From contig CBDCDS010000003.1 in NCBI GenBank assembly GCA_965215365.1, positions 632,383 through 696,382 on the forward strand: a stretch of DNA of 64,000 bases, in the 5' to 3' direction. The stretch is from Gammaproteobacteria bacterium (GTDB taxonomy: Bacteria; Pseudomonadota; Gammaproteobacteria; Eutrophobiales; Eutrophobiaceae). Positions 13,324-25,297 of the stretch are shown one piece after another (position 1 is the stretch's first letter; each line of letters starts with the position of its first letter). Under the pieces are notes generated by a model that worked only from the letters and a program-made list of their open reading frames with translations, ran no database searches and was not told the DNA's origin. The translations under genes and the position numbers were made by a program.

Positions 13324-14445
13324 TTGCCCTATAAACACAATACTATGAATATAACCTTAAATAGAGAACAACTGTTACCTGCCTTGTCTGATCTGAATGG
13401 TGTTGTTGAATCCAGGCCGGCCTTGGCAATTCTGGCCAATGTCCTGATCAATATTTCGCCCCAGGAAATCAGGCTGACGACAACAGATATGGAAGTTGAA
13501 CTTTCCGAAGCTATCCCAGGCGAGTTTGGAGAAACGGGGGAAATTACTGTTCCGGCGCGCAAGCTCTTGGACATTTGCCGGACTTTGCCGGAAGCCGCCG
13601 AGATCGCACTGACAGTTGAGGACGAACGGGTAAATGTGGCCTCTGGCAGAAGCCGATTCTCCTTGTTGTCACTGCCGGCACAGGAGTTTCCGAGAGTGGA
13701 ACCCGGCCAGACCGACGTCAGTTTTTCGTTATCGCAGGCGGTGTTCAAGTCGTTGCTGGAGCGTACCGCCTTTGCCATGGCTAGGCAGGATGTGCGCTAT
13801 TACCTGAATGGAGTCCTGTTGGAGGCGGAGGCAGGGCAGCTGCGCGCGGTCGCCACGGACGGACACCGGCTGGCCCTGTGTGAAGTTGACATTACGTTTC
13901 CCGCGGAGGAGAAAAAACAGTTAATCATGCCAAGGAAAGGCGTCATGGAGCTGCTGCGCTTGCTGCATGACTCGGAAGACGAGGTGGAAATCGTCATGAG
14001 CGGAAATCATATCCGCATTGTCAGGGGCGACCTGATCTTCACCAGTAAACTGATAGACGGCAAATACCCGGATTACAACCGGGTCATCCCGGCCCCGGCC
14101 CAACAGCCCGTGCTGGCCCAACGGGAGATATTGAAGCGGAGTCTCGGCCGCGCCTCAATACTATCCACCGACAAATACCGGGGGGTGAGAATAACGCTGG
14201 AAGAAAACAAACTCAGCGCAAACGTCCACAATCCTGAACAGGAACAGGCCGAGGACGAGATTGACGTCGAGTATTCGGGAGAGAAGCTGGAAGTCGGCTT
14301 CAACGTGAGTTATCTGCTTGACGCAGTCAGTATTATTCAGACCGACAAGGTAAAACTTTCCATCTCATCTCCGAAAAGCGGCTGTCTGGTATTGCCTGAG
14401 GAAGGCGAAGGGTGCAAGTACATCGTCATGCCGTTGATGCTTTAA
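13324..14445 (+). CDS. dnaN: DNA polymerase III beta sliding clamp (true start probably ATG at 13345)
   Basis: Full-length DnaN-like sequence (LSLLSLPAQEFP etc.). No dnaA is present upstream. Confidence 0.9.
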   Translation: MPYKHNTMNITLNREQLLPALSDLNGVVESRPALAILANVLINISPQEIRLTTTDMEVELSEAIPGEFGETGEITVPARKLLDICRTLPEAAEIALTVEDERVNVASGRSRFSLLSLPAQEFPRVEPGQTDVSFSLSQAVFKSLLERTAFAMARQDVRYYLNGVLLEAEAGQLRAVATDGHRLALCEVDITFPAEEKKQLIMPRKGVMELLRLLHDSEDEVEIVMSGNHIRIVRGDLIFTSKLIDGKYPDYNRVIPAPAQQPVLAQREILKRSLGRASILSTDKYRGVRITLEENKLSANVHNPEQEQAEDEIDVEYSGEKLEVGFNVSYLLDAVSIIQTDKVKLSISSPKSGCLVLPEEGEGCKYIVMPLML

Positions 14446-14493
14446 CCCGCATATCTCACCAAGTCACTTGTTTTAACACTGCTATCGCAGCCG

Positions 14494-15582
14494 ATGCGCA
14501 TTGAATGGCTGCACATCCGAAACGTTCGTAACCTGTCGGAACTGAGGTTAGAGCCGGCCGCCGGGCTTAACCTGATCTGTGGCCCGAACGGTAGCGGCAA
14601 GACGGCGCTGTTGGAAGCTATCTATTTTCTGGGGCGCTGTCGCTCATTTCGCACTGCCGCCATACAGCGGGTTATCCGCAACCAGCAACGCGCATTGCAG
14701 GTCAGCGCCGGATTGCTGCTTACCGATCAGCGTCGAATTGTTACGGGGGTGGAGCGCAGCCGGACGGCGCTCGATATCCGTTACAACAACACCACTGTGC
14801 ACAAGGTGTCCGAACAGGCAGCGCAGCTCCCCGTTATTACAATTATTCCGGAAAGCCACAGACTGGTTTCTGGCAGCCCGATATACCGCAGACGCTGGTT
14901 GGACTGGGCCATGTTTCACGTGGAACCACACTATATCAATCTCTGGCGGGACTATTACAAGGCGTTAAAACAGCGCAACAGCTTGCTTCGCTCGAACAGG
15001 GTCGAACAACTGGGTGCATGGGAACAAGCCATGGCGCGTGCCGCAGAAGCTATGACCGCACAGCGTACCGGCTTTATCGACGAACTGGCGGTGGCTATGA
15101 GCGCAGCCGCCCGGCGCTTGCAGATTGCACAAACTACGCTGGAATATGAGTGTGGTTGGCAGGCAGACACTGAGTTAGCCTCATTCCTCGCAGAGCAACG
15201 CAAAGGCGATCAGGAAAGAGGCACAACGCGACAAGGACTGCACCGCAGCGATATGACCATCCACCACGAGGGGAGGGAAGTCGGGCATTTTTATTCACGC
15301 GGGCAGATTAAGCTGTGCATTATTGCACTGTCGCTGGCCCTGGATAGTGTGTTCAGGAAGCGCACCGGGCGCATCCCGCTGATCTTGGCGGACGACCTGC
15401 CGGCGGAGTTGGATCAGAACAGCTTGCTGCGCGTTGTGGATGGATTGGCCGGGCAGGGGAGTCAGGTTTTCATCACTTCAACAGACTCGATTCCGGCAGT
15501 TTCACAGCATCCGCTAAAATTGTTTCACGTGGAACAGGGGCAGATTACCGACTCGGTGTTGTCCGGGTTCAGAAACAAGTGA
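14494..15582 (+). CDS. recF: DNA replication and repair protein RecF
   Basis: Walker A GPNGSGKT. RecF family; conserved position after dnaN. Confidence 0.9.
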   Translation: MRIEWLHIRNVRNLSELRLEPAAGLNLICGPNGSGKTALLEAIYFLGRCRSFRTAAIQRVIRNQQRALQVSAGLLLTDQRRIVTGVERSRTALDIRYNNTTVHKVSEQAAQLPVITIIPESHRLVSGSPIYRRRWLDWAMFHVEPHYINLWRDYYKALKQRNSLLRSNRVEQLGAWEQAMARAAEAMTAQRTGFIDELAVAMSAAARRLQIAQTTLEYECGWQADTELASFLAEQRKGDQERGTTRQGLHRSDMTIHHEGREVGHFYSRGQIKLCIIALSLALDSVFRKRTGRIPLILADDLPAELDQNSLLRVVDGLAGQGSQVFITSTDSIPAVSQHPLKLFHVEQGQITDSVLSGFRNK

Positions 15583-16655: not shown

Positions 16656-17000
16656 TCAGTTTCCCAGGGCGCGCGCCTCACCGAGTACCGCTCCGATATA
16701 CGCCGTGACCACCGCCGTGCGCACCCGCGGACGGGCGGTGAGCAGGTCGCGATTCGTCTCATTGAACGCCAGCGCCTTGCCGGCGGAGTCGGTTACATCG
16801 TCCCAACCAATCAGCACCCGGTTGACCAGGGCAATATCCGCGCGCGGCGCATCGAGCAGCGCATCGAGCTCAGCTTGCGTGAGCTCGACAAAGCGGGCGG
16901 TAAAGGTCTGCTTGTCGTGACCACTGCCGCCCGGCGCGGACACGCTCACCGGCATGGTGAACTCGCTGCTCTGCTCGGGTGTCAATAATTTTAATGTCAT
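16656..17000 (-). CDS. phage/GTA tail assembly chaperone, gpG-like
   Basis: 114 aa. Position and size are typical of gpG. Immediately followed by a gpT-like ORF in the -1 frame. Confidence 0.45.
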   Translation of the reverse strand: MTLKLLTPEQSSEFTMPVSVSAPGGSGHDKQTFTARFVELTQAELDALLDAPRADIALVNRVLIGWDDVTDSAGKALAFNETNRDLLTARPRVRTAVVTAYIGAVLGEARALGN

Positions 17001-17924: not shown

Positions 17925-18467
17925 AGTGTTCCGGGCCGACGATCCGATCTGGAAAACCCACTACCCGCCGAACGGGTTCGGCTGCCGCAGCCGACGAGCT
18001 GGGCAAGATCAGTGTCCCCAAACTGGAAGGGGCGCCACCGGCTATCGCCCGCCCGCACGTGCAGGACGCGCTGGATTATGGCGAGGTGTTGATTGACCAG
18101 CCGGAATCTTATGAAAGGCAAGGCAAACGTCACACGCTGATCGCCTATTACGAGGATGACGGCTGGTGGCGACACGTCATCGAAGTGCGGCACAAGCAAC
18201 TGCTGCTGCTGACAGCATTTCGAGACGAATATTCTGATATACGCACCGAGGATGTACTGCGCCGCCCGGGCCTGGTGACCGTGAGAGACTGGGACGAGAA
18301 CCGCTGGCGGGACAGACCGAAAGAGAGTGGGAAGTGAAGCATGGAAGGCGAATATCTCCACGGGCTCCCCGGCACAATCCGCTATGGATAGCCGGGTTCT
18401 ACGGTAAATCTGTACTCTACCTCACTTCCCAGAGTGCAGTATAACACAAAATGAAAACAGAACGTAA

Positions 18468-19991
18468 CTACTCGCCCCCCTTACCCTGATCTCTTGTTCT
18501 GATCTGGTTTTTCTTAACCGTTTTATTTTTGAGCGGTTTTTCCACCATGGTGGCGGCGTCTCCCTTGAGTGCTATCTCGATGGCGGCGAGGGGATTGTAG
18601 CCCTTCAGGGTCATAGACTGCAAGTAGCTGGAGATGCGGCAGTAGGTGTCGGCGTAGGCGGTGGTTCGGAAGCAGCCGGAGACTTTTTGTTTGACTTTAG
18701 CCATACGGATATCGCGTTCGGCGCGGTTGTTGGTGAACGGCACGTTGGGGTCGCGGGCGAAGCGGAGGACTTCGGTTTCGTACTTGACGAGGGCATCATG
18801 GAGGTTTTGTGCCTCACATTGGGCAATCCGTCCGCGTTGGCCGGTGAGCCGTTTCGGGGGTGTGGGGAGTTCCCGTTTGGCTTGTGTCAGGATAGTCCGG
18901 TAGCGGGTGCGCAGGGACTGGTAGTCGGTCTCGCTGAGTGCCTTGTTTTTATGTGTGCGCACCTGTCGGCAGGTCTTGAGCAGGAGGCGGCTCATACGTT
19001 GGGCCCAGGCATGGCCGTGGGCGTCCTCGATAAAGGCCAAGTTACGCAACAGGTGACTGCCGCACAGGGCATGCTCGCAGTTGTCATAGGCGAAGTAGCT
19101 GGCCCAGCGGTCGTGCACGAGAACACCGCCGTAGCGGGGGACGATGCCGATGTCCTTGAGGGCGTCCCCGCCCCGCTTGCGGTGGCAGTGTTTCAGTACC
19201 AGGTTCCCGGCACTGGTGCTGTGCAGCCAGTGTTGTGTGCGGTCGATGCGCAAGGAGGTCTCATCGGCGTGCAGCACGGGCTCTGTGAGCAGGCGGGCGA
19301 TAGCCGCCCGCTCCCACCCGGCCAGGGCCTCATGCACCCGCGTGAGCCAGGCCAGTAAGGTCGCCTCGGCGACGGCGCGCCCGGTCAGTGCATGAAGTGT
19401 CTGCGCCGTACGTTTGAGCGAGAGCATTTGGGCCGTTAACAGGTGCGTGGCGAAAGCCACGATGCCAGGGCCGTATTGTAAAGGCCCCGGCATGTCATCG
19501 GGAAACGCCCCGTGGGTCTCAGTGCCACAGCGCGGACAGGTTTTTATCTCGGCGTCAATGGTCAACTCGGTCGTCTCGAAGACTATATCGACCTTGACTC
19601 GTCGCACATGGCCGGTGGGGGCGGTGCCTTTGAGATCATGCCCGCAGGCCCGGCAGCCGGTCACGGGCACCGTGCGGGTCTGAGCCACCACGCGCCGGGA
19701 CGCGCTGGGCACCGTCCCGGTCTGCGGCCCCTTGCCCTGCTTGCCGGGCCGTGTGCGCGCACTGTCATCGGGGTCGGTGCGGGAACTGGGCAGGCTGGAG
19801 TTGTGCGCCCCCTTCGGTGTGGTCTTCTCTAAGAACACCGCCAGCAGCAACTCGAATAGCAGCAACATCGACTCGAACAGCGCACGCCCTTCGGGACTCA
19901 GCGCGCCGTCGGCGCACAACGCCTTAAAACGCATTCGGATGGCCTCGAACTCCGCACGCAATGAGGCCTTGTTCACCGTGGCCATGTGCAC
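18468..19991 (-). CDS. IS66-family transposase (TnpC-type)
   Basis: 507 aa with HADETSLRI, CGSHLLRNL and NNRAERDIRMAKVKQKVSGCFRT, the hallmark IS66 TnpC motifs. Confidence 0.85.
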   Translation of the reverse strand: MHMATVNKASLRAEFEAIRMRFKALCADGALSPEGRALFESMLLLFELLLAVFLEKTTPKGAHNSSLPSSRTDPDDSARTRPGKQGKGPQTGTVPSASRRVVAQTRTVPVTGCRACGHDLKGTAPTGHVRRVKVDIVFETTELTIDAEIKTCPRCGTETHGAFPDDMPGPLQYGPGIVAFATHLLTAQMLSLKRTAQTLHALTGRAVAEATLLAWLTRVHEALAGWERAAIARLLTEPVLHADETSLRIDRTQHWLHSTSAGNLVLKHCHRKRGGDALKDIGIVPRYGGVLVHDRWASYFAYDNCEHALCGSHLLRNLAFIEDAHGHAWAQRMSRLLLKTCRQVRTHKNKALSETDYQSLRTRYRTILTQAKRELPTPPKRLTGQRGRIAQCEAQNLHDALVKYETEVLRFARDPNVPFTNNRAERDIRMAKVKQKVSGCFRTTAYADTYCRISSYLQSMTLKGYNPLAAIEIALKGDAATMVEKPLKNKTVKKNQIRTRDQGKGGE

Positions 19992-20665
19992 TGTGCCTCC
20001 ACCGCCATCATCGCCGCCAGCACCGCCAGCCGCTCGGCCGGGGGCAAGTCACGATAACGCCGCCCCCAGTTCTCAGCCTTGCGCTTGACCTGCTGGCGGT
20101 GCGTGAAGTTGCGCCCCGCATAGCGCACCCAGTGCACCCGGTCCGGCACAAAATTGAACCAGACCCGCTCGGTCACCACCCCGCCCTGATTCATCACCTG
20201 CAAGGACACACTGCGCCAGCCCGCCAGCACCTCATCATACAAGGCCGAAGGATACCCCGACACCATCACCGCACAGGGCAGCCCCTGCAGTAACGCCAGC
20301 AGCGCCTCATGGTCTGAGTCCTCGTAGTCATACCGGTAACGGTGCCGTGACTTGCGCGTGCTGTGCAGGTAGGGCGGGTCGCTGTACACCAACTCCGTGC
20401 CGTCAAACGGAAAAGTCGCCAACCAGCGGTGACAACACCCCTGCACCAACTCCACCGGATACCCACACGTAAACCCCGCCAACGCCCGCACATCAAGATC
20501 AATCCCAATGTTGCGCAACGCCGCCGGCTTGCGCTGCATAATCGCCCCGCCGCCTAAGTGTGTCTCAATGTACACACTGTGCGGCGGCATCATCGCAATG
20601 AGCGGCTGGCACAGACCCGTCGTGGCTTTCGACCCTCGGTACGCATTCCCCATGACGACCAACAT
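19973..20665 (-). CDS. D12-class N6-adenine DNA methyltransferase (Dam-like), cargo of the IS66 element
   Basis: Motif I-like YIETHLGGGA and motif IV DPPY. 230 aa. Overlaps the transposase start by 19 bp. Confidence 0.65.
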   Translation of the reverse strand: MLVVMGNAYRGSKATTGLCQPLIAMMPPHSVYIETHLGGGAIMQRKPAALRNIGIDLDVRALAGFTCGYPVELVQGCCHRWLATFPFDGTELVYSDPPYLHSTRKSRHRYRYDYEDSDHEALLALLQGLPCAVMVSGYPSALYDEVLAGWRSVSLQVMNQGGVVTERVWFNFVPDRVHWVRYAGRNFTHRQQVKRKAENWGRRYRDLPPAERLAVLAAMMAVEAQCTWPR

Positions 20666-20817
20666 AACGCCATGACGCTATGTTGTCAAGGACGCCTTGA
20701 CAAAAAATTCAGTAGAATTAGAGGGAGGGGGCGAGTAGTTACAACAGAACAATTCATACCAGTAAGTATATCACGGCGGTCTGTTTTGTGGTCAGTTTGG
20801 GTAAGTATTTGATACAG

Positions 20818-21669
20818 TCAGACTTTTTCAAACAGGGTCAGGCTTAATATCTGTAATATTGTGTAGAGTTCGGTAGGCAGATCGAGCCGTTTTTTGATGA
20901 TGGCGACCAAGACATAAACGCCAATAGCGGTCCGGATTTGGGTTTTCACAGCATTCTCAGAGGTGCCGAAGAAGGCCTTGATACGCAGGTGTTGTTTGAT
21001 CCATTTGAAGAACAACTCGACCTGCCACCGGCAACGATACAAATCGGCAATGGTGACGGCCGGCAGGGTCAAGTTGTGGGTGAGGAACACCCGTGTTTTG
21101 CCGGTGTTGGCATCGTGATAGCGGATACGACGCAGGGTGTCGGGATAGCGCGGTGCGGAGCGTTGGCCGGTCAGCACGCCGGTCTGGTCGATGCGGCGGG
21201 AGTAGCGGCGCGCAAACTTGAGGTTGGACTTGGCTCGGATTACGAACAAGGCCGAGGCTAAGGTGAGGCCATGCAGTCGTTCGAAGTCGAGGTAGGCACG
21301 GTCCATGACGTAGAAGGCGCCGGGCTCGGGGATAAGCAGGTCGAGGGCATTGACATCGTGCAGTTTACCGTCGGAGACATGGATAAAGGCGGGGATACTG
21401 CCTTGTAAGTCCAGTAAGGTATGCAGTTTGATGGCGGCCTTGGTCTGTCGGAAGTGCGCCCAGGGGAATACGGACAGGCACAGGTCGACCTCGATATCGC
21501 GCAGGCTCTCGCGGTGGGTGAGTTGGGCGAAGGCCAGGCATAGGAACTGGTCAAGACAGGTAAAAGACTTGACGTAGCGATTGCCGTGGTAGCGTTGGAC
21601 GCAGCGGCGGAAAGTGTGCATGGGCAAGTGGGCCATGAGTTGTGAGAAGACGAAATTGCCGGTATACAT
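20818..21669 (-). CDS. DDE transposase, IS4/IS5 superfamily (DDE_Tnp_1)
   Basis: 283 aa with ...DRAYLDFERL... and YRCRWQVELFFKWIKQ (the catalytic E/K region). Confidence 0.7.
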   Translation of the reverse strand: MYTGNFVFSQLMAHLPMHTFRRCVQRYHGNRYVKSFTCLDQFLCLAFAQLTHRESLRDIEVDLCLSVFPWAHFRQTKAAIKLHTLLDLQGSIPAFIHVSDGKLHDVNALDLLIPEPGAFYVMDRAYLDFERLHGLTLASALFVIRAKSNLKFARRYSRRIDQTGVLTGQRSAPRYPDTLRRIRYHDANTGKTRVFLTHNLTLPAVTIADLYRCRWQVELFFKWIKQHLRIKAFFGTSENAVKTQIRTAIGVYVLVAIIKKRLDLPTELYTILQILSLTLFEKV

Positions 21670-21884: not shown

Positions 21885-22514
21885 TTACTCCGGCTCAAAT
21901 CTTTGCAGGAATGCAAGCGCATTTTTCAAAAAGTCCTTGCCATTGCGGAATCTCCCCAACCCTGTATTGCAACTATCGCAAACATAATCCCTTGCATCTC
22001 CAGTTAAATGTCCATGATCTAAAACAATCTTGACGGTTACCCCCACTATGCCGTCTTTTTCACATATAGGACAACGCCAGAACACTCCTATTGGGGGCTT
22101 ATAAGGAACAGAGCCATCTTTACGCTTCGCATGATTGCGCACGCCGTCAATGCCCCTTCTGCAATCTACGCAGGTAGGACGATATATCGTTGAACCATCC
22201 TTCCGAGTTTGGTTTGCATCGAAATGTTTTAACGCTTTAAGGGTAAAACACTGATTACAGACTTTTTCAATTTGATCTTTTGGCTTCAATCCTACATGCT
22301 TCATAAACTCGCGCTGACGGGCGCTGATTTGAATAGGATATTCCTCTGGAGCAAAAGGCTTAACCGCATCTGTCGGTAAAACTTGCACGCGTCCACCCAA
22401 TGGAATTTTAACTTCGACCCCTCGGTCTGTGCGTTTTTGCACCATTGCCAACCGCCCATCAGCAACAATGACAACCCATTCAGGGGGCTGCTCTGGCGGT
22501 TCATTTGATGTCAT
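21885..22514 (-). CDS. HNH/Endonuclease VII-fold nuclease; putative type II restriction endonuclease
   Basis: C-terminal CPICEKDG...LDHGHLTGDARDYVCDSCNTGLG matches the CxxC...DHxHxTGxxRGxxCxxCNxxLG signature of phage T4 Endo VII-like HNH nucleases. It overlaps the upstream MTase gene by 4 bp (ATGA). Low GC. Confidence 0.55.
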   Translation of the reverse strand: MTSNEPPEQPPEWVVIVADGRLAMVQKRTDRGVEVKIPLGGRVQVLPTDAVKPFAPEEYPIQISARQREFMKHVGLKPKDQIEKVCNQCFTLKALKHFDANQTRKDGSTIYRPTCVDCRRGIDGVRNHAKRKDGSVPYKPPIGVFWRCPICEKDGIVGVTVKIVLDHGHLTGDARDYVCDSCNTGLGRFRNGKDFLKNALAFLQRFEPE

Positions 22515-23293
22515 GCGGTTGCTGCCATGATCTGGTTTCCCAGCCTGGTTTTTGCAATGTCAATGTATTCCTCGGATATATCAATGCCGATCCAATCACG
22601 ACCGTTATAAGCTGCCATTTTGCAAGTTGTGCCTGACCCGCACATCGGATCAAATACCAGATCGCCGGGATTCGTCCACGAAAGGATATGATCTTCGGCC
22701 AGCTTTTCTGGAAATACTGCCGGATGATTAAATGCTATTTTGTCCCTTGTGGTTCCTCCCAGACCAACCGCATAAGCCCATATATTGGTCCTGGTCTTTT
22801 CTTTCTTTAATTCTTTCAGCACTTTGTTATTGACCGCATCCGGGCCCTTGTTGTGAACCATCATTTCGTAGCCGTTGCGGACTGTTTTTTCCTTAATCGG
22901 ATTGAATGTATCAGGTGACCCTTTGGAAAATACAAACATGAACTCGTGACAGTTAGTGTAAGCGTTGCTGCGCATGAAAGGTGTATTTTTCTTCTGGTAA
23001 ATCATCACGTCATGGACGCGGAATCCCAAAGCCTGGAAAAACAGCGCTTGCTTCATACTGGTCAGCGTCCTGCCGCCATGACCATTTATCTTGTCACCCA
23101 CGACCCAAACAACCACGCCTCCTTCCTTCGTGACACGAAACAGTCCTGCCGCTATATCTTCAAATGGAAATGAATAACCCTGGTAATTCCTCAAATTGTC
23201 ATACGGCGGCGATGTGACAGTTAAATCAACCATGCCCTCATCCATGGCGGCCATAATTTTCACACAGTCGCCCGTGTAAAGGTGGTTTCTCAT
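22511..23293 (-). CDS. DNA methyltransferase (beta-class N4-C/N6-A; TSPPY motif IV precedes FDPMCGSGTT motif I)
   Basis: 260 aa with TSPPYDNL and FDPMCGSGTT in permuted order, typical of beta-class amino-MTases. Low GC. Translationally coupled to the nuclease gene. Confidence 0.75.
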   Translation of the reverse strand: MRNHLYTGDCVKIMAAMDEGMVDLTVTSPPYDNLRNYQGYSFPFEDIAAGLFRVTKEGGVVVWVVGDKINGHGGRTLTSMKQALFFQALGFRVHDVMIYQKKNTPFMRSNAYTNCHEFMFVFSKGSPDTFNPIKEKTVRNGYEMMVHNKGPDAVNNKVLKELKKEKTRTNIWAYAVGLGGTTRDKIAFNHPAVFPEKLAEDHILSWTNPGDLVFDPMCGSGTTCKMAAYNGRDWIGIDISEEYIDIAKTRLGNQIMAATA

Positions 23294-23327: not shown

Positions 23328-24338
23328 TCAACGCGACTGCGGGTAGTGGTCTCGAATCAGTGATAACAAGCGGGTGGCATCATCTGTTGCCTCCCATTCA
23401 TTATCCTCATTGACCACAATCAGCTCGGTTTTGTTACCGACACCAGTCAGGCTGATTTGCCATGAACCGGACGCGTTGCTGGCATTTTTCTCACGCGTTT
23501 GTCCACTTGCGCCGAGCTGATAGGCACCCTGTTCCGAGTCGCTGCCGGTTACCTGCAGACCACTGTTTTGTAAGGCAATTCCGGTGTTCTTCCAGGCCTG
23601 TTCAAAGGCTTCGGGAATGGCCAGATACATTTTGCCGTCACCGGCATCGACTACCCGTAAGGCACCATCAGCGCCAGTTTGGGAAGCACCTGCCCCCGGC
23701 TCATCGACAGGCGCGGCCGGCGCCGGTGTTGCGGCAGGTTCACCGGCGCCAAGGAACCGGGCGAGCTCGGCAGCAAATAGTCTTTCCTGTTCCTGGTCTT
23801 GGTCTTGCTCGAGCCAGTCGGCATTGTCATCAATTCGGGTTTGGCGCAGTTGGCTGATGACCAGCGTTGAGCTGTCCGGCGTGCCGCCGGCTTCGGCAAA
23901 AATTTTGTATTTGTAACGATACTGCAAGCCAGCCTGTTGTTCGGTCGCAGACCAACCGGTCTCCAGCACCCCCAGCTCACTATCGTCAAGCTCAACAGAG
24001 TAATTTTCCGAGGCAATAAACTCAAGCAAGCGCGGCCACAGCTGTTGTGTTGACATCGGCAGGGTCAACCACTGTTCGCCTGTTTCGGTGCTGCCCGAAG
24101 CAATATCGGGGCCGCCGGGCGCGCGCGGATTTTTATAACTGGACAACGTGACCGGTGCCTCGCCCGGTATGTTCATGGAATCATTGATAGCATTGGCGGT
24201 CAAATCCGGCGGGATTTCCAAATCCGGCATGCTCTCGCTTTTCTTGTACTCGCTCTTTTTGTCGGGCAGGTACGCGCAAGACGCTAGCAGAGACAGGCCC
24301 GACAGGATGGTTGCAAGAGTTAAAACAGGTGTTTTCAT
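23328..24338 (-). CDS. bamC: outer membrane protein assembly factor BamC (NlpB) lipoprotein
   Basis: Lipobox LLASC, 336 aa. Conserved position downstream of dapA. Confidence 0.75.
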   Translation of the reverse strand: MKTPVLTLATILSGLSLLASCAYLPDKKSEYKKSESMPDLEIPPDLTANAINDSMNIPGEAPVTLSSYKNPRAPGGPDIASGSTETGEQWLTLPMSTQQLWPRLLEFIASENYSVELDDSELGVLETGWSATEQQAGLQYRYKYKIFAEAGGTPDSSTLVISQLRQTRIDDNADWLEQDQDQEQERLFAAELARFLGAGEPAATPAPAAPVDEPGAGASQTGADGALRVVDAGDGKMYLAIPEAFEQAWKNTGIALQNSGLQVTGSDSEQGAYQLGASGQTREKNASNASGSWQISLTGVGNKTELIVVNEDNEWEATDDATRLLSLIRDHYPQSR

Positions 24339-24400
24339 AACAGACCTCTGGTTGGTATTGCGTGTTCATACAAGGGGCATCCCGCTCAGGAGCGGCCCTG

Positions 24401-25297
24401 TCAAATCACCTCTGCTTGTTGCATGGCCGCTTCAACCCGAGCATGGAGCTCTTCGGAAAGCCAGGTCATGGGCAGGCGGATGCCGTTTTCGATCAGGCCG
24501 AGCCGTTGCATGGCCCACTTGGTCGGTATCGGGTTGGATTCAAGAAACAGCGATTGGTGCAAGCCCAGCAGTTTGGTGTCTAAAGCCTTGGCTGCGTCCC
24601 GGTTACCGGCGCGCGCCAGCCGACACAGTTCGTGCATTGCCGCCGGCGCCACATTGGCCGTGACGGAAATCACCCCATCGCCACCCATCAGCATAAAATC
24701 ACAAGCCGTCTCATCATCGCCGCTGAGCAGCAGAAAGTCCTCGCCACAGGTTGCGCGCAGCGCGCAGACCCGGTCCACCTCGCCGGTTGCTTCCTTGACC
24801 CCGATGATGTTATCGACCTGCGCCAGCCGGGACACGGTTTCAGGCAGCAGGTCGCAAGCCGTGCGCGCCGGCACATTGTAGAGCAGCTGGGGAATGGAGA
24901 CACTATCGGCAATCACCTTGAAGTGTGCATACATACCGGCCTGGGTCGGTTTGTTGTAGTACGGCGTCACCAGCAAACAGGCGTCGGCGCCGGCTTGTTG
25001 TGCATAGGCCGTCAACTCGATAGCCTCGATCGTTGAGTTTGCGCCGGTACCGGCGATGACCGGCACGCGCCCGTTGACGACCTCCACAACCTGTTTGATG
25101 ACCCGGCAGTGTTCATCCGGCATCAACGTTGCTGATTCGCCTGTTGTGCCTACGGCAACAATACCGTCCGACCCGTTGTCAATGTGGAATTCGACCAGCT
25201 GCGCCAAGGCGTTGAGGTCCAGCGGCGCATCCGGGGCGACGCCCCCCTGCATGGGGGTGATGATGGCAACTAGGCAGCCTGAGAACAGATCTTTCAT
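24401..25297 (-). CDS. dapA: 4-hydroxy-tetrahydrodipicolinate synthase
   Basis: 298 aa, full DapA-like sequence (GTTGE, YNVP). Confidence 0.9.
   Translation of the reverse strand: MKDLFSGCLVAIITPMQGGVAPDAPLDLNALAQLVEFHIDNGSDGIVAVGTTGESATLMPDEHCRVIKQVVEVVNGRVPVIAGTGANSTIEAIELTAYAQQAGADACLLVTPYYNKPTQAGMYAHFKVIADSVSIPQLLYNVPARTACDLLPETVSRLAQVDNIIGVKEATGEVDRVCALRATCGEDFLLLSGDDETACDFMLMGGDGVISVTANVAPAAMHELCRLARAGNRDAAKALDTKLLGLHQSLFLESNPIPTKWAMQRLGLIENGIRLPMTWLSEELHARVEAAMQQAEVI

Follow-up and report, generated by a model that had tools for sequence, protein, structure and literature searches.

An IS66-family insertion sequence encoding a putative adenine methyltransferase within a promoter-containing cassette found in several transposon lineages

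The 64,000-nucleotide stretch of DNA analysed here, hereafter called the window (Gammaproteobacteria bacterium, family Eutrophobiaceae; GenBank assembly GCA_965215365.1, contig CBDCDS010000003.1, positions 632,383 to 696,382), contains an insertion sequence (IS) of the IS66 family which encodes, in addition to its transposase, a putative orphan DNA methyltransferase (MTase) of the N6-adenine type. This element is a real and recently active IS of which the MTase is an integral part, since its ends and both of its genes recur in sister copies that have different flanks and different target duplications. Most probably, it represents an intact two-gene IS66 element equipped with a portable promoter–MTase cassette, possibly of phage origin, whose MTase may serve in anti-restriction or in the control of the operon. 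The features of the element are the following:

18464..20742, minus strand for the genes: complete IS of 2,279 bp, delimited by inverted repeats and by alignment to the sister copies L001 and L002
18456..18463, no strand: target-site duplication, copy 1, AACAGAAC, abutting the IS end
20743..20750, no strand: target-site duplication, copy 2, AACAGAAC, abutting the IS end
20727..20742, minus strand: terminal inverted repeat GTAACTACTCGCCCCC on the MTase side, the left end in gene orientation (repeat search)
18464..18479, plus strand: terminal inverted repeat GTAACTACTCGCCCCC at the transposase end, with the transposase stop codon inside it (repeat search)
18468..19985, minus strand: IS66-family DDE transposase of the single-gene (ISBst12-like) type, 505 residues from ATG 19985 (NF033517, PF03050)
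19973..20653, minus strand: putative orphan N6-adenine-type DNA MTase gene, 226 residues from ATG 20653 (PHROG_56, PADLOC MTase_II and profile matches)
20369..20380, minus strand: codons of the catalytic motif IV D-P-P-Y, read directly in the sequence and invariant in homologues
20661..20689, minus strand: predicted sigma-70-like promoter of the operon, TTGACA, 17-nt spacer, TATGTT (promoter scan)
20664..20681, minus strand: inverted repeat ATAG-N10-TTAT within the spacer and -10 part of the promoter, possibly an operator or a site of methylation (half-site conservation)

Ends, transposase and mobility of the element

The boundaries of the IS are fixed by its inverted repeats and by its alignment to two independent copies, L001 and L002, whose similarity to the window element begins and ends exactly at GTAAC. 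The GTAACTACTCGCCCCC pair forms perfect 16-nt inverted repeats, the longest inverted pair reported by the repeat finder in the region, and no third match was found across the 64-kb window with up to three mismatches allowed. Five occurrences of the 8-mer AACAGAAC were counted in the window, and two of them abut the IS ends exactly; by our own arithmetic, the chance expectation is about 1e-3 in the case of the inverted repeat and about 1.5e-5 in that of an 8-mer abutting exactly. Termini starting with GTAA and an 8-bp target duplication are typical of the IS66 family, and the window IS has both. A preliminary description of this DNA had reported 16-bp repeats of this kind flanked by an 8-bp duplication and had assigned the element, with intact ends, to IS66: repeats and duplication are read directly where it placed them, and the family assignment is upheld by the agreement of family scores, repeats and sister copies. 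The G+C content of the IS is 62% versus about 47–53% in its immediate flanks, and between its ends the only long open reading frames (ORFs) with family matches are those of the MTase and the transposase, both on the minus strand. An Rfam scan detected no RNA family inside the IS, and searches by repeat and by proteins disclosed no further copy of it within the 64-kb window.

The transposase scored 249 bits against NF033517 (IS66; cut-off 180) and 145.9 bits against PF03050 (E=2e-42; cut-off 23.1). It retains all the residues that are invariant over 18 diverse relatives, namely C111/C114/C150/C153, D241-E-T, D292, C308/H311 and E423, and the catalytic signature of IS66 enzymes is present as D241 (DET), D292, the CxxH pair C308/H311 and E423 (NNxAER). 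The Pfam domains LZ_Tnp_IS66, zf-IS66 and IS66_C were not detected in this protein, though the CxxC...CxxC pair is conserved. Conservation among homologues places the start of the gene at ATG 19985 (MATVNK...) and not at GTG 19991, so that the MTase and transposase ORFs overlap by 13 nt and not by 19 bp, a value which had been obtained by assuming the GTG start. In relatives, the junction reads MTase-TAA-GGGG-ATG-tnp, with the ancestral TAA stop located 4 nt ahead of the transposase ATG; the overlap in the window lineage exists because a 5-bp deletion removed this TAA, the MTase running nine codons further.

MTase homologues sharing 75–90% identity are plentiful in metagenomes, where 4,565 clusters match at E<=1e-3, and in every context of a close relative that was read, an IS66 transposase follows the MTase 4 nt on. 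Contig L002 corresponds to approximately one whole element, with GTAACTACTCGCCCCC at its start and the complement at its end, while in L001 an identical left end borders on another flank; the window terminus is also found in L013–L018. In L003–L010, identical MTase–transposase units occupy eight different neighbourhoods. A locus scan using one genome per species provided 79 loci from metagenome-assembled genomes (MAGs), the hosts being Gamma- and Alphaproteobacteria, Caldilineaceae and Dehalococcoidia. An IS66 transposase lies directly downstream of the MTase in 80 of 89 loci, the other nine consisting of two contig ends, four truncated copies, one very divergent IS66 (L081), an element assigned to a different family (L019) and a locus lacking a transposase (L039).

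Copies residing within the same genome are 99.5–100% identical over 2,264, 2,339, 2,292 or 2,508–2,511 bp; all of them start with GTAACTAC, and most carry copy-specific 8-bp duplications (for example GAATTAAG, GAAAAATT, GTTCTTTC, CATTCAAG, ATCTAGAA, GAATCTTC and AGAGGAAG). In the closest multi-copy sister element, represented by five copies (L013–L018), the duplicated 8-mers are A+T-rich. One alphaproteobacterial MAG contains 45 copies more than 95% identical, 29 of which are full length with both ORFs intact, and a 2.63-Mb contig encoding a protein identical to the window transposase harbors five more full-length or truncated variants from the same cluster. A search of 72,556 plasmids and 50,697 phage records returned no copy of the IS; these collections contain only distant MTase relatives (64–75% nucleotide identity) and distant single-gene IS66 transposases. 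The proposal that the MTase belongs to the mobile unit, which might still be mobile, is thus well founded: sister copies share the ends and both genes, and their identical ends are joined to different flanks and different 8-bp duplications, as expected of an element mobile now or recently. The expectation that other copies would lack the MTase is not borne out by the sister copies, which leaves the idea unrefuted, and the pattern of repeats and duplication is reproduced in copy comparisons with other 8-mers.

The sister copies L003–L010 are often located beside defence or toxin–antitoxin genes. L005 is next to hsdS/hsdM, L006 lies between two N6_N4 MTase genes with UvrD/ResIII, L007 is beside RES-Xre and L010 beside PIN. 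Simple accumulation in islands or a target preference could account for these locations.

Regarding the origin of the backbone, the closest annotated relatives of the transposase (34–37% identity) are single-ORF IS66 elements without tnpA or tnpB, among them ISGst1 on pGS18 and elements from Chlorohelix and Bacillus. Similarly, the closest relative of one MTase-bearing clade is a single-gene Bradyrhizobium element of 1,547 bp, which has GTAACTGCCCAGGT ends and is flanked by an 8-bp duplication. Canonical IS66 elements (tnpA-tnpB-tnpC; e.g. IS66, IS679) share with the window IS the NF033517/PF03050 transposase, the GTAA ends and the 8-bp duplication, but the tnpA and tnpB genes which they possess upstream of tnpC are absent here, the MTase being found upstream instead. 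Members of the ISBst12 group, such as ISGst1 from Geobacillus pGS18, resemble it more closely, their sole transposition gene encoding an IS66-type DDE transposase between GTAA termini with an 8-bp duplication. Unlike these elements, which have a single gene and measure roughly 1.35–1.9 kb, the window IS has a second gene and a length of 2,279 bp (2.26–2.51 kb among MTase ISs), with an extra cassette of ~0.7 kb, composed of promoter and MTase, upstream of the transposase; the latter is 30–37% identical to annotated members of the group. The window IS can best be regarded as a backbone of the ISBst12-like type to which a cassette is joined, and the MTase was added to a transposase-only IS, since the nearest MTase-less relatives are single-gene IS66 elements. 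The preliminary description had instead favored a canonical three-gene IS66 element, in which a captured orphan MTase replaced tnpA and tnpB as a peculiarity of this one element. Such a replacement would agree with an IS66-family element devoid of both genes. It is nevertheless scarcely credible, as the closest MTase-less relatives have the transposase gene only, the ORFs of the IS contain no match to TnpB_IS66, TnpA or HTH_Tnp_1, nor any remnant of them, and the same arrangement is common to thousands of homologues.

The methyltransferase and its portable cassette

The open frame of the MTase reaches back to ATG 20665 (230 residues). This codon falls within the predicted -10 hexamer, which is why translation probably begins at ATG 20653 (MGNAY..., 226 residues), 7 nt past the -10, from a leader which would be very short or absent (leaderless). 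The protein matches PADLOC MTase_II at E=7e-21 and PHROG_56, a "DNA methyltransferase" family, at E=4e-20. Across 36 close and 41 diverse homologues (alignments A2 and A4), GxK, xLGxG and DPPY do not vary, and motif I (ETHLGGGA, about residues 34–41) precedes motif IV (DPPY, residues 96–99; 230-residue numbering). A single-sequence search of solved structures gave no match and a shallow profile reached DpnM at E=0.098; with profile A4, widened with phage and plasmid relatives, DpnM (2dpm) was retrieved at E=1.6e-7 and Escherichia coli Dam at E=2.4e-5. These D12 (alpha-group) enzymes, the best solved-structure matches, share with the window MTase a catalytic core containing motif I (xLGGG) and motif IV (DPPY). 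Of the earlier assignment to a D12-class enzyme with a DPPY motif, the motif stands (20369–20380), while membership of the D12 class rests on remote similarity, below the PF02086 and TIGR00571 cut-offs. We call this protein a Dam-related adenine MTase, with predicted activity, of a distinct family which has no curated Pfam or NCBIfam model.

The closest relatives of the MTase outside ISs (44–55% identity) are found on plasmids and phages. They include IncP-1 upf31.0 (44%), a "DNA adenine methylase" of a sphingomonad (Novosphingobium) plasmid (46%), as well as an MTase from a Klebsiella P2-like phage (49%) and MTases from IMG/VR contigs, the closest of which is L103 (55%). Orphan adenine MTases of phages and plasmids are presumed to have an anti-restriction role. 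Those related to the window enzyme (upf31.0, the sphingomonad plasmid, Klebsiella phage 3LV2017) belong to the same family, with similar size and motifs; unlike the IS-borne enzymes, they stand alone in their backbones, whereas the IS-borne set forms a separate tight clade with at least 67% identity and is almost entirely linked to transposases.

The predicted promoter at 20661..20689, a strong one of the sigma-70-like type, is the sole promoter-like site returned by the promoter scan of the IS. In sampled lineages of all IS types, the cassette promoter follows the consensus TTGACA-NN-ATAG-N10-CTATGGT, in which the ATAG and CTAT half-sites are nearly invariant and the 2-nt and 10-nt spacers vary freely. 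The second half-site is TTAT in the window copy and CTAT in most lineages. Use of the ATG embedded in CTATGG as an alternative start codon was ruled out, this codon being out of frame in B and D lineages, and the motif is accordingly regarded as a DNA signal and not as coding sequence. The same promoter design is present upstream of the phage MTase L103, which is located amid tail genes without any transposase. Among 46 phage and plasmid relatives, two have a match to ATAG-N9-11-CTAT, and L103 is the only one that also has TTGACA. GATC-based regulation, akin to that exerted by host Dam, was likewise considered and dismissed: GATC occurs four times in the window copy, once in L002 and not at all in the L013 unit, with none conserved in the promoter or terminal repeats.

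The distance between promoter and gene differs among lineages. A-lineage and ISNCY-type cassettes have just 7 nt from the -10 to the start codon, and B-lineage cassettes (L022:3930-3990, L040, L082 and L003) have a conserved hairpin, for instance GGCTCCCAT...ATGGGAGC, located between the -10 and a GTG start. This hairpin is a possible translational control element.

The cassette, a unit of ~0.7 kb comprising promoter and MTase, is 71–80% identical in nucleotide sequence between lineages, and its divergence does not follow that of the transposases it accompanies. Among the IS66 transposase clades, A and B are 53–62% identical to each other and C is only 29–35% identical to A/B, being closer to MTase-less elements (44–48%). 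Their MTases do not show this gap: those of clade C are 67–76% identical to those of A/B, which is the range seen within A/B. L081 has a fourth, very divergent IS66 transposase, together with the same MTase at 70% identity. In addition, the cassette is found in two-gene ISs of a different family:

L019:3845-6065: ISNCY-type two-gene IS with cassette
L095:2913-5065: ISNCY-type two-gene IS with cassette
L097:2873-5081: ISNCY-type two-gene IS with cassette

In these units (L019, L095/L096 and L097/L098), an MTase 77–79% identical to that of the window lies 13 nt ahead of, or overlaps by 4 nt, a transposase of 428–429 residues. This transposase has weak matches to DDE_Tnp_1_assoc and DDE_Tnp_1, and its relatives are named "ISNCY family" by NCBI; those with 57–58% identity are encoded by single-gene elements without MTase. 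The ISNCY-type units measure 2.15–2.22 kb and are bounded by CAGCA(A/G)TTCTCATTTT inverted repeats and copy-specific 9-bp duplications. Between IS types, nucleotide similarity is limited to the cassette: it amounts to 80.5% over 646 nt between the window and L095, which corresponds to the MTase coding sequence, and to 76.6% over 714 nt between L003 and L042, from the -35 element through the MTase stop. In a neighbor-joining tree, the IS-borne MTases constitute one tight, star-like clade in which the IS types are intermixed, with the plasmid and phage MTases far outside. The cassette is thus present in at least four IS66 lineages and one unrelated IS family, which removes the impression, given by the preliminary description, of a peculiarity of a single element.

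The ratio of nonsynonymous to synonymous substitution rates (dN/dS) is 0.11–0.38 for the MTase and 0.16–0.38 for the transposase, and is lower for the MTase in four of the five pairs in which both genes were measured. The MTase is thus under purifying selection, to which it is generally subject more strongly than the transposase. Synonymous divergence (dS) of the two genes is similar in four of these five pairs in clade AB, which fits co-descent of both genes within this clade. Strict co-descent of MTase and transposase holds for most clade-AB pairs and was rejected between AB, C and the ISNCY type. Judging from these comparisons, promoter and MTase together look like a portable, reusable module and not a one-off passenger. 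A phage-moron origin of this module is consistent with the position of its closest non-IS relative (55%) amid phage tail genes and with the promoter design they have in common. At L042:2066-3571, a different IS66-family transposase gene is located directly upstream of an MTase-bearing unit; such adjacency of two IS66 types could provide an arrangement allowing cassette exchange.

Proposed role of the cassette and alternative explanations

A mechanism can be proposed in which the IS66-type transposase would recognize the terminal repeats beginning with GTAACTAC and insert the element by an 8-bp staggered cut. The operon would be transcribed from the cassette promoter, and transposase expression seems to depend on the cassette because no other promoter-like site is predicted in the IS. 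Translation of the transposase is probably coupled to that of the MTase, as its frame abuts or overlaps the MTase stop. The cassette has passed between IS66 lineages separated by deep divergence and an ISNCY-type IS, and its position is always the same. The MTase would methylate adenines at a short motif throughout the host DNA and that of co-resident plasmids and phages. Such methylation would protect DNA in advance from matching restriction systems, including the vehicles that carry the IS toward new cells, and could also immunize the host against restriction systems of that specificity, while the repeat in the promoter would allow the MTase, or the methylation it performs, to limit how strongly the operon as a whole is expressed. 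The earlier suggestion of an element spreading epigenetic marking or anti-restriction is plausible on these grounds.

Several observations weigh against this interpretation. A protective enzyme acting in trans would be needed in one copy per genome only, and because one copy suffices, host protection alone does not obviously explain the tight linkage to two transposase families; moreover, incoming DNA would be protected only if it had been methylated in the donor. The start of transcription, the absence of a leader and the coupling of translation are deduced from sequence. The loci were collected by searching for the MTase, which biases counts in which it is always present. In a Rhodobacter MAG (L039:1-630), an MTase homologue (71–73% identity) is followed by a ubiG-like gene without any transposase; this contig begins inside the MTase, so that a solo cassette is indistinguishable from a remnant. 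Full-text searches of the literature returned no account of MTase-bearing elements of the IS66 or ISNCY type; ISfinder and REBASE were outside this search, and such elements may have been catalogued before. With respect to the enzyme itself, the MTase scores 18.6 bits against PF02086 (cut-off 22) and 22.9 against TIGR00571 (cut-off 114.85), its AlphaFold model, built on a shallow alignment, is poor (pLDDT 59), and the top 16 Foldseek matches of this model, comprising DpnM, Dam and McbE1, reach a TM-score of ~0.3, which constitutes weak support. In HMMER alignments, finally, the target-recognition insert of Dam and DpnM (~90–100 residues, motifs III–IV) has no counterpart in the window MTase, which differs from these enzymes also by a basic C-terminal extension of ~50 residues. 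Since the insert is missing, DNA specificity would have to come from this basic region or from a partner.

The missing insert and the scores below curated MTase thresholds, along with the constant translational adjacency to the transposase, could also be explained if the protein had the MTase fold without methylating DNA and acted as an accessory factor of transposition, binding DNA or pairing the ends in the role of TnpA/TnpB. This is very unlikely: the S-adenosylmethionine-binding motif and DPPY are invariant, homologues occur alone in phages and plasmids without transposase, and specific protein–protein or protein–end contacts are difficult to envisage for a protein that accompanies two transposases which are unrelated and have unrelated ends. 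Somewhat less remote, and still improbable, is that the MTase is a neutral, hitch-hiking passenger, retained merely because it lies between the ends. ISs with passenger genes, MTases included, are a recognized category termed transporter ISs, in which, as here, a gene without obvious function in transposition moves along between the ends; and relatives without MTase transpose perfectly well. However, unlike in transporter ISs, the additional gene is generally more conserved than the transposase, brings the promoter of the operon, the only one predicted, and is common to different IS families. The dN/dS values of 0.11–0.38, the invariant catalytic motifs and the recurrence of the same cassette at the same position in several IS66 lineages and another family, that is, purifying selection combined with recurrence, make neutrality unlikely.

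A more serious alternative, which we regard as possible though clearly not the favored one, is that the cassette provides the IS with an epigenetic regulator of transposition of its own, comparable to host Dam in the case of IS10, IS50 and IS903. The control of IS10 and IS50 by Dam is established, and several type II MTases regulate their own synthesis by binding their own promoters. Here, the MTase would methylate the adenines of ATAG-N10-CTAT over its own -10, full methylation or binding switching the operon off; passage of the replication fork would then generate a hemimethylated, briefly active promoter. Transposase would consequently be produced at a low level, in a manner coupled to replication and independent of host methylases, a property useful to any IS. 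In favor of such self-regulation, the ATAG and CTAT half-sites, which overlap the predicted promoter, hardly change among the sampled lineages, in contrast to the bases around and between them, the repeat accompanies the MTase whatever the transposase, being already present upstream of the L103 phage MTase, and the transposase has no promoter-like site of its own and abuts or overlaps the MTase ORF. The resemblance to IS10/Tn10, IS50/Tn5 and IS903 is conceptual, linking adenine methylation, transposase promoter and timing of transposition: these elements rely on host Dam and on GATC sites in promoter and ends, whereas the window IS carries its own putative MTase and has no conserved GATC in the transposase promoter or IS end. 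Against self-regulation, no motif is common to the promoter and the terminal repeats of both IS families, GATC sites lack conservation and are absent from the L013 unit, one of the two half-sites in the window copy is TTAT and not CTAT, and the repeat could bind a host factor or be a mere conserved promoter spacer. The roles in anti-restriction and as promoter donor are ranked slightly ahead of self-regulation because the other members of the family are phage and plasmid orphan MTases; self-regulation, which is not mutually exclusive with them, draws further weight from the recurrent coupling of the MTase, at a fixed position, to unrelated transposases.

Genomic neighborhood and significance

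The IS occupies an A+T-rich intergenic position and interrupts no recognizable gene. It is part of a mobile-element island of ~7 kb between dnaN-recF (13324..15582) and bamC/nlpB-dapA (23328..25297). This island lies directly downstream of dnaN-recF, with a stretch of 65–69% G+C at 16.2–18.0 kb and a weak match to a phage tail-assembly chaperone at 16656..17000. At ~1.1 kb from the IS, an ORF of the His-Me finger/Endonuclease VII type (21885..22514) and the gene of a beta-class N6_N4 DNA methylase (22511..23293) overlap by 4 nt, and the pair (21885-23293) looks like a compact type II restriction-modification system. About 70 bp from the IS end, an IS4-family transposase ORF (20818-21669, 283 residues; NF033592 190 bits, DUF4372 and DDE_Tnp_1) seems shortened relative to the 332-position model, and no second copy of it was found in the window; 30633..31484, considered as such a copy, was rejected because the proteins are unrelated.

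ISs are usually viewed as minimal entities, consisting of a transposase and two ends, and their accessory genes, including tnpA and tnpB of IS66, are poorly understood. What is unusual in the present case is a small MTase with its own promoter, generally under tighter constraint than the transposase and swapped between IS lineages and families. ISs with this cassette have multiplied to dozens of copies in single genomes of uncultivated members of the Alpha- and Gammaproteobacteria, the Chloroflexota and other groups, many of them from sponge metagenomes, and are currently annotated only as "IS66 family transposase", "ISNCY family transposase", "DNA methylase" or "hypothetical protein". A bolder proposal, to which we give little weight at present, is that the cassette is a portable epigenetic control module, repeatedly acquired by unrelated ISs, which throttles the transposase, ties it to replication and shields the vehicles of the element from restriction. 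If true, it would be the first IS-encoded counterpart of the control of transposition by Dam, a plug-in moving between transposon families. More generally, methylation appears to be selectively advantageous to the transposon itself, which leads to the testable ideas that mobile elements may carry their own epigenetic regulators and that ISs may disseminate orphan methylation specificities within communities where restriction systems abound.

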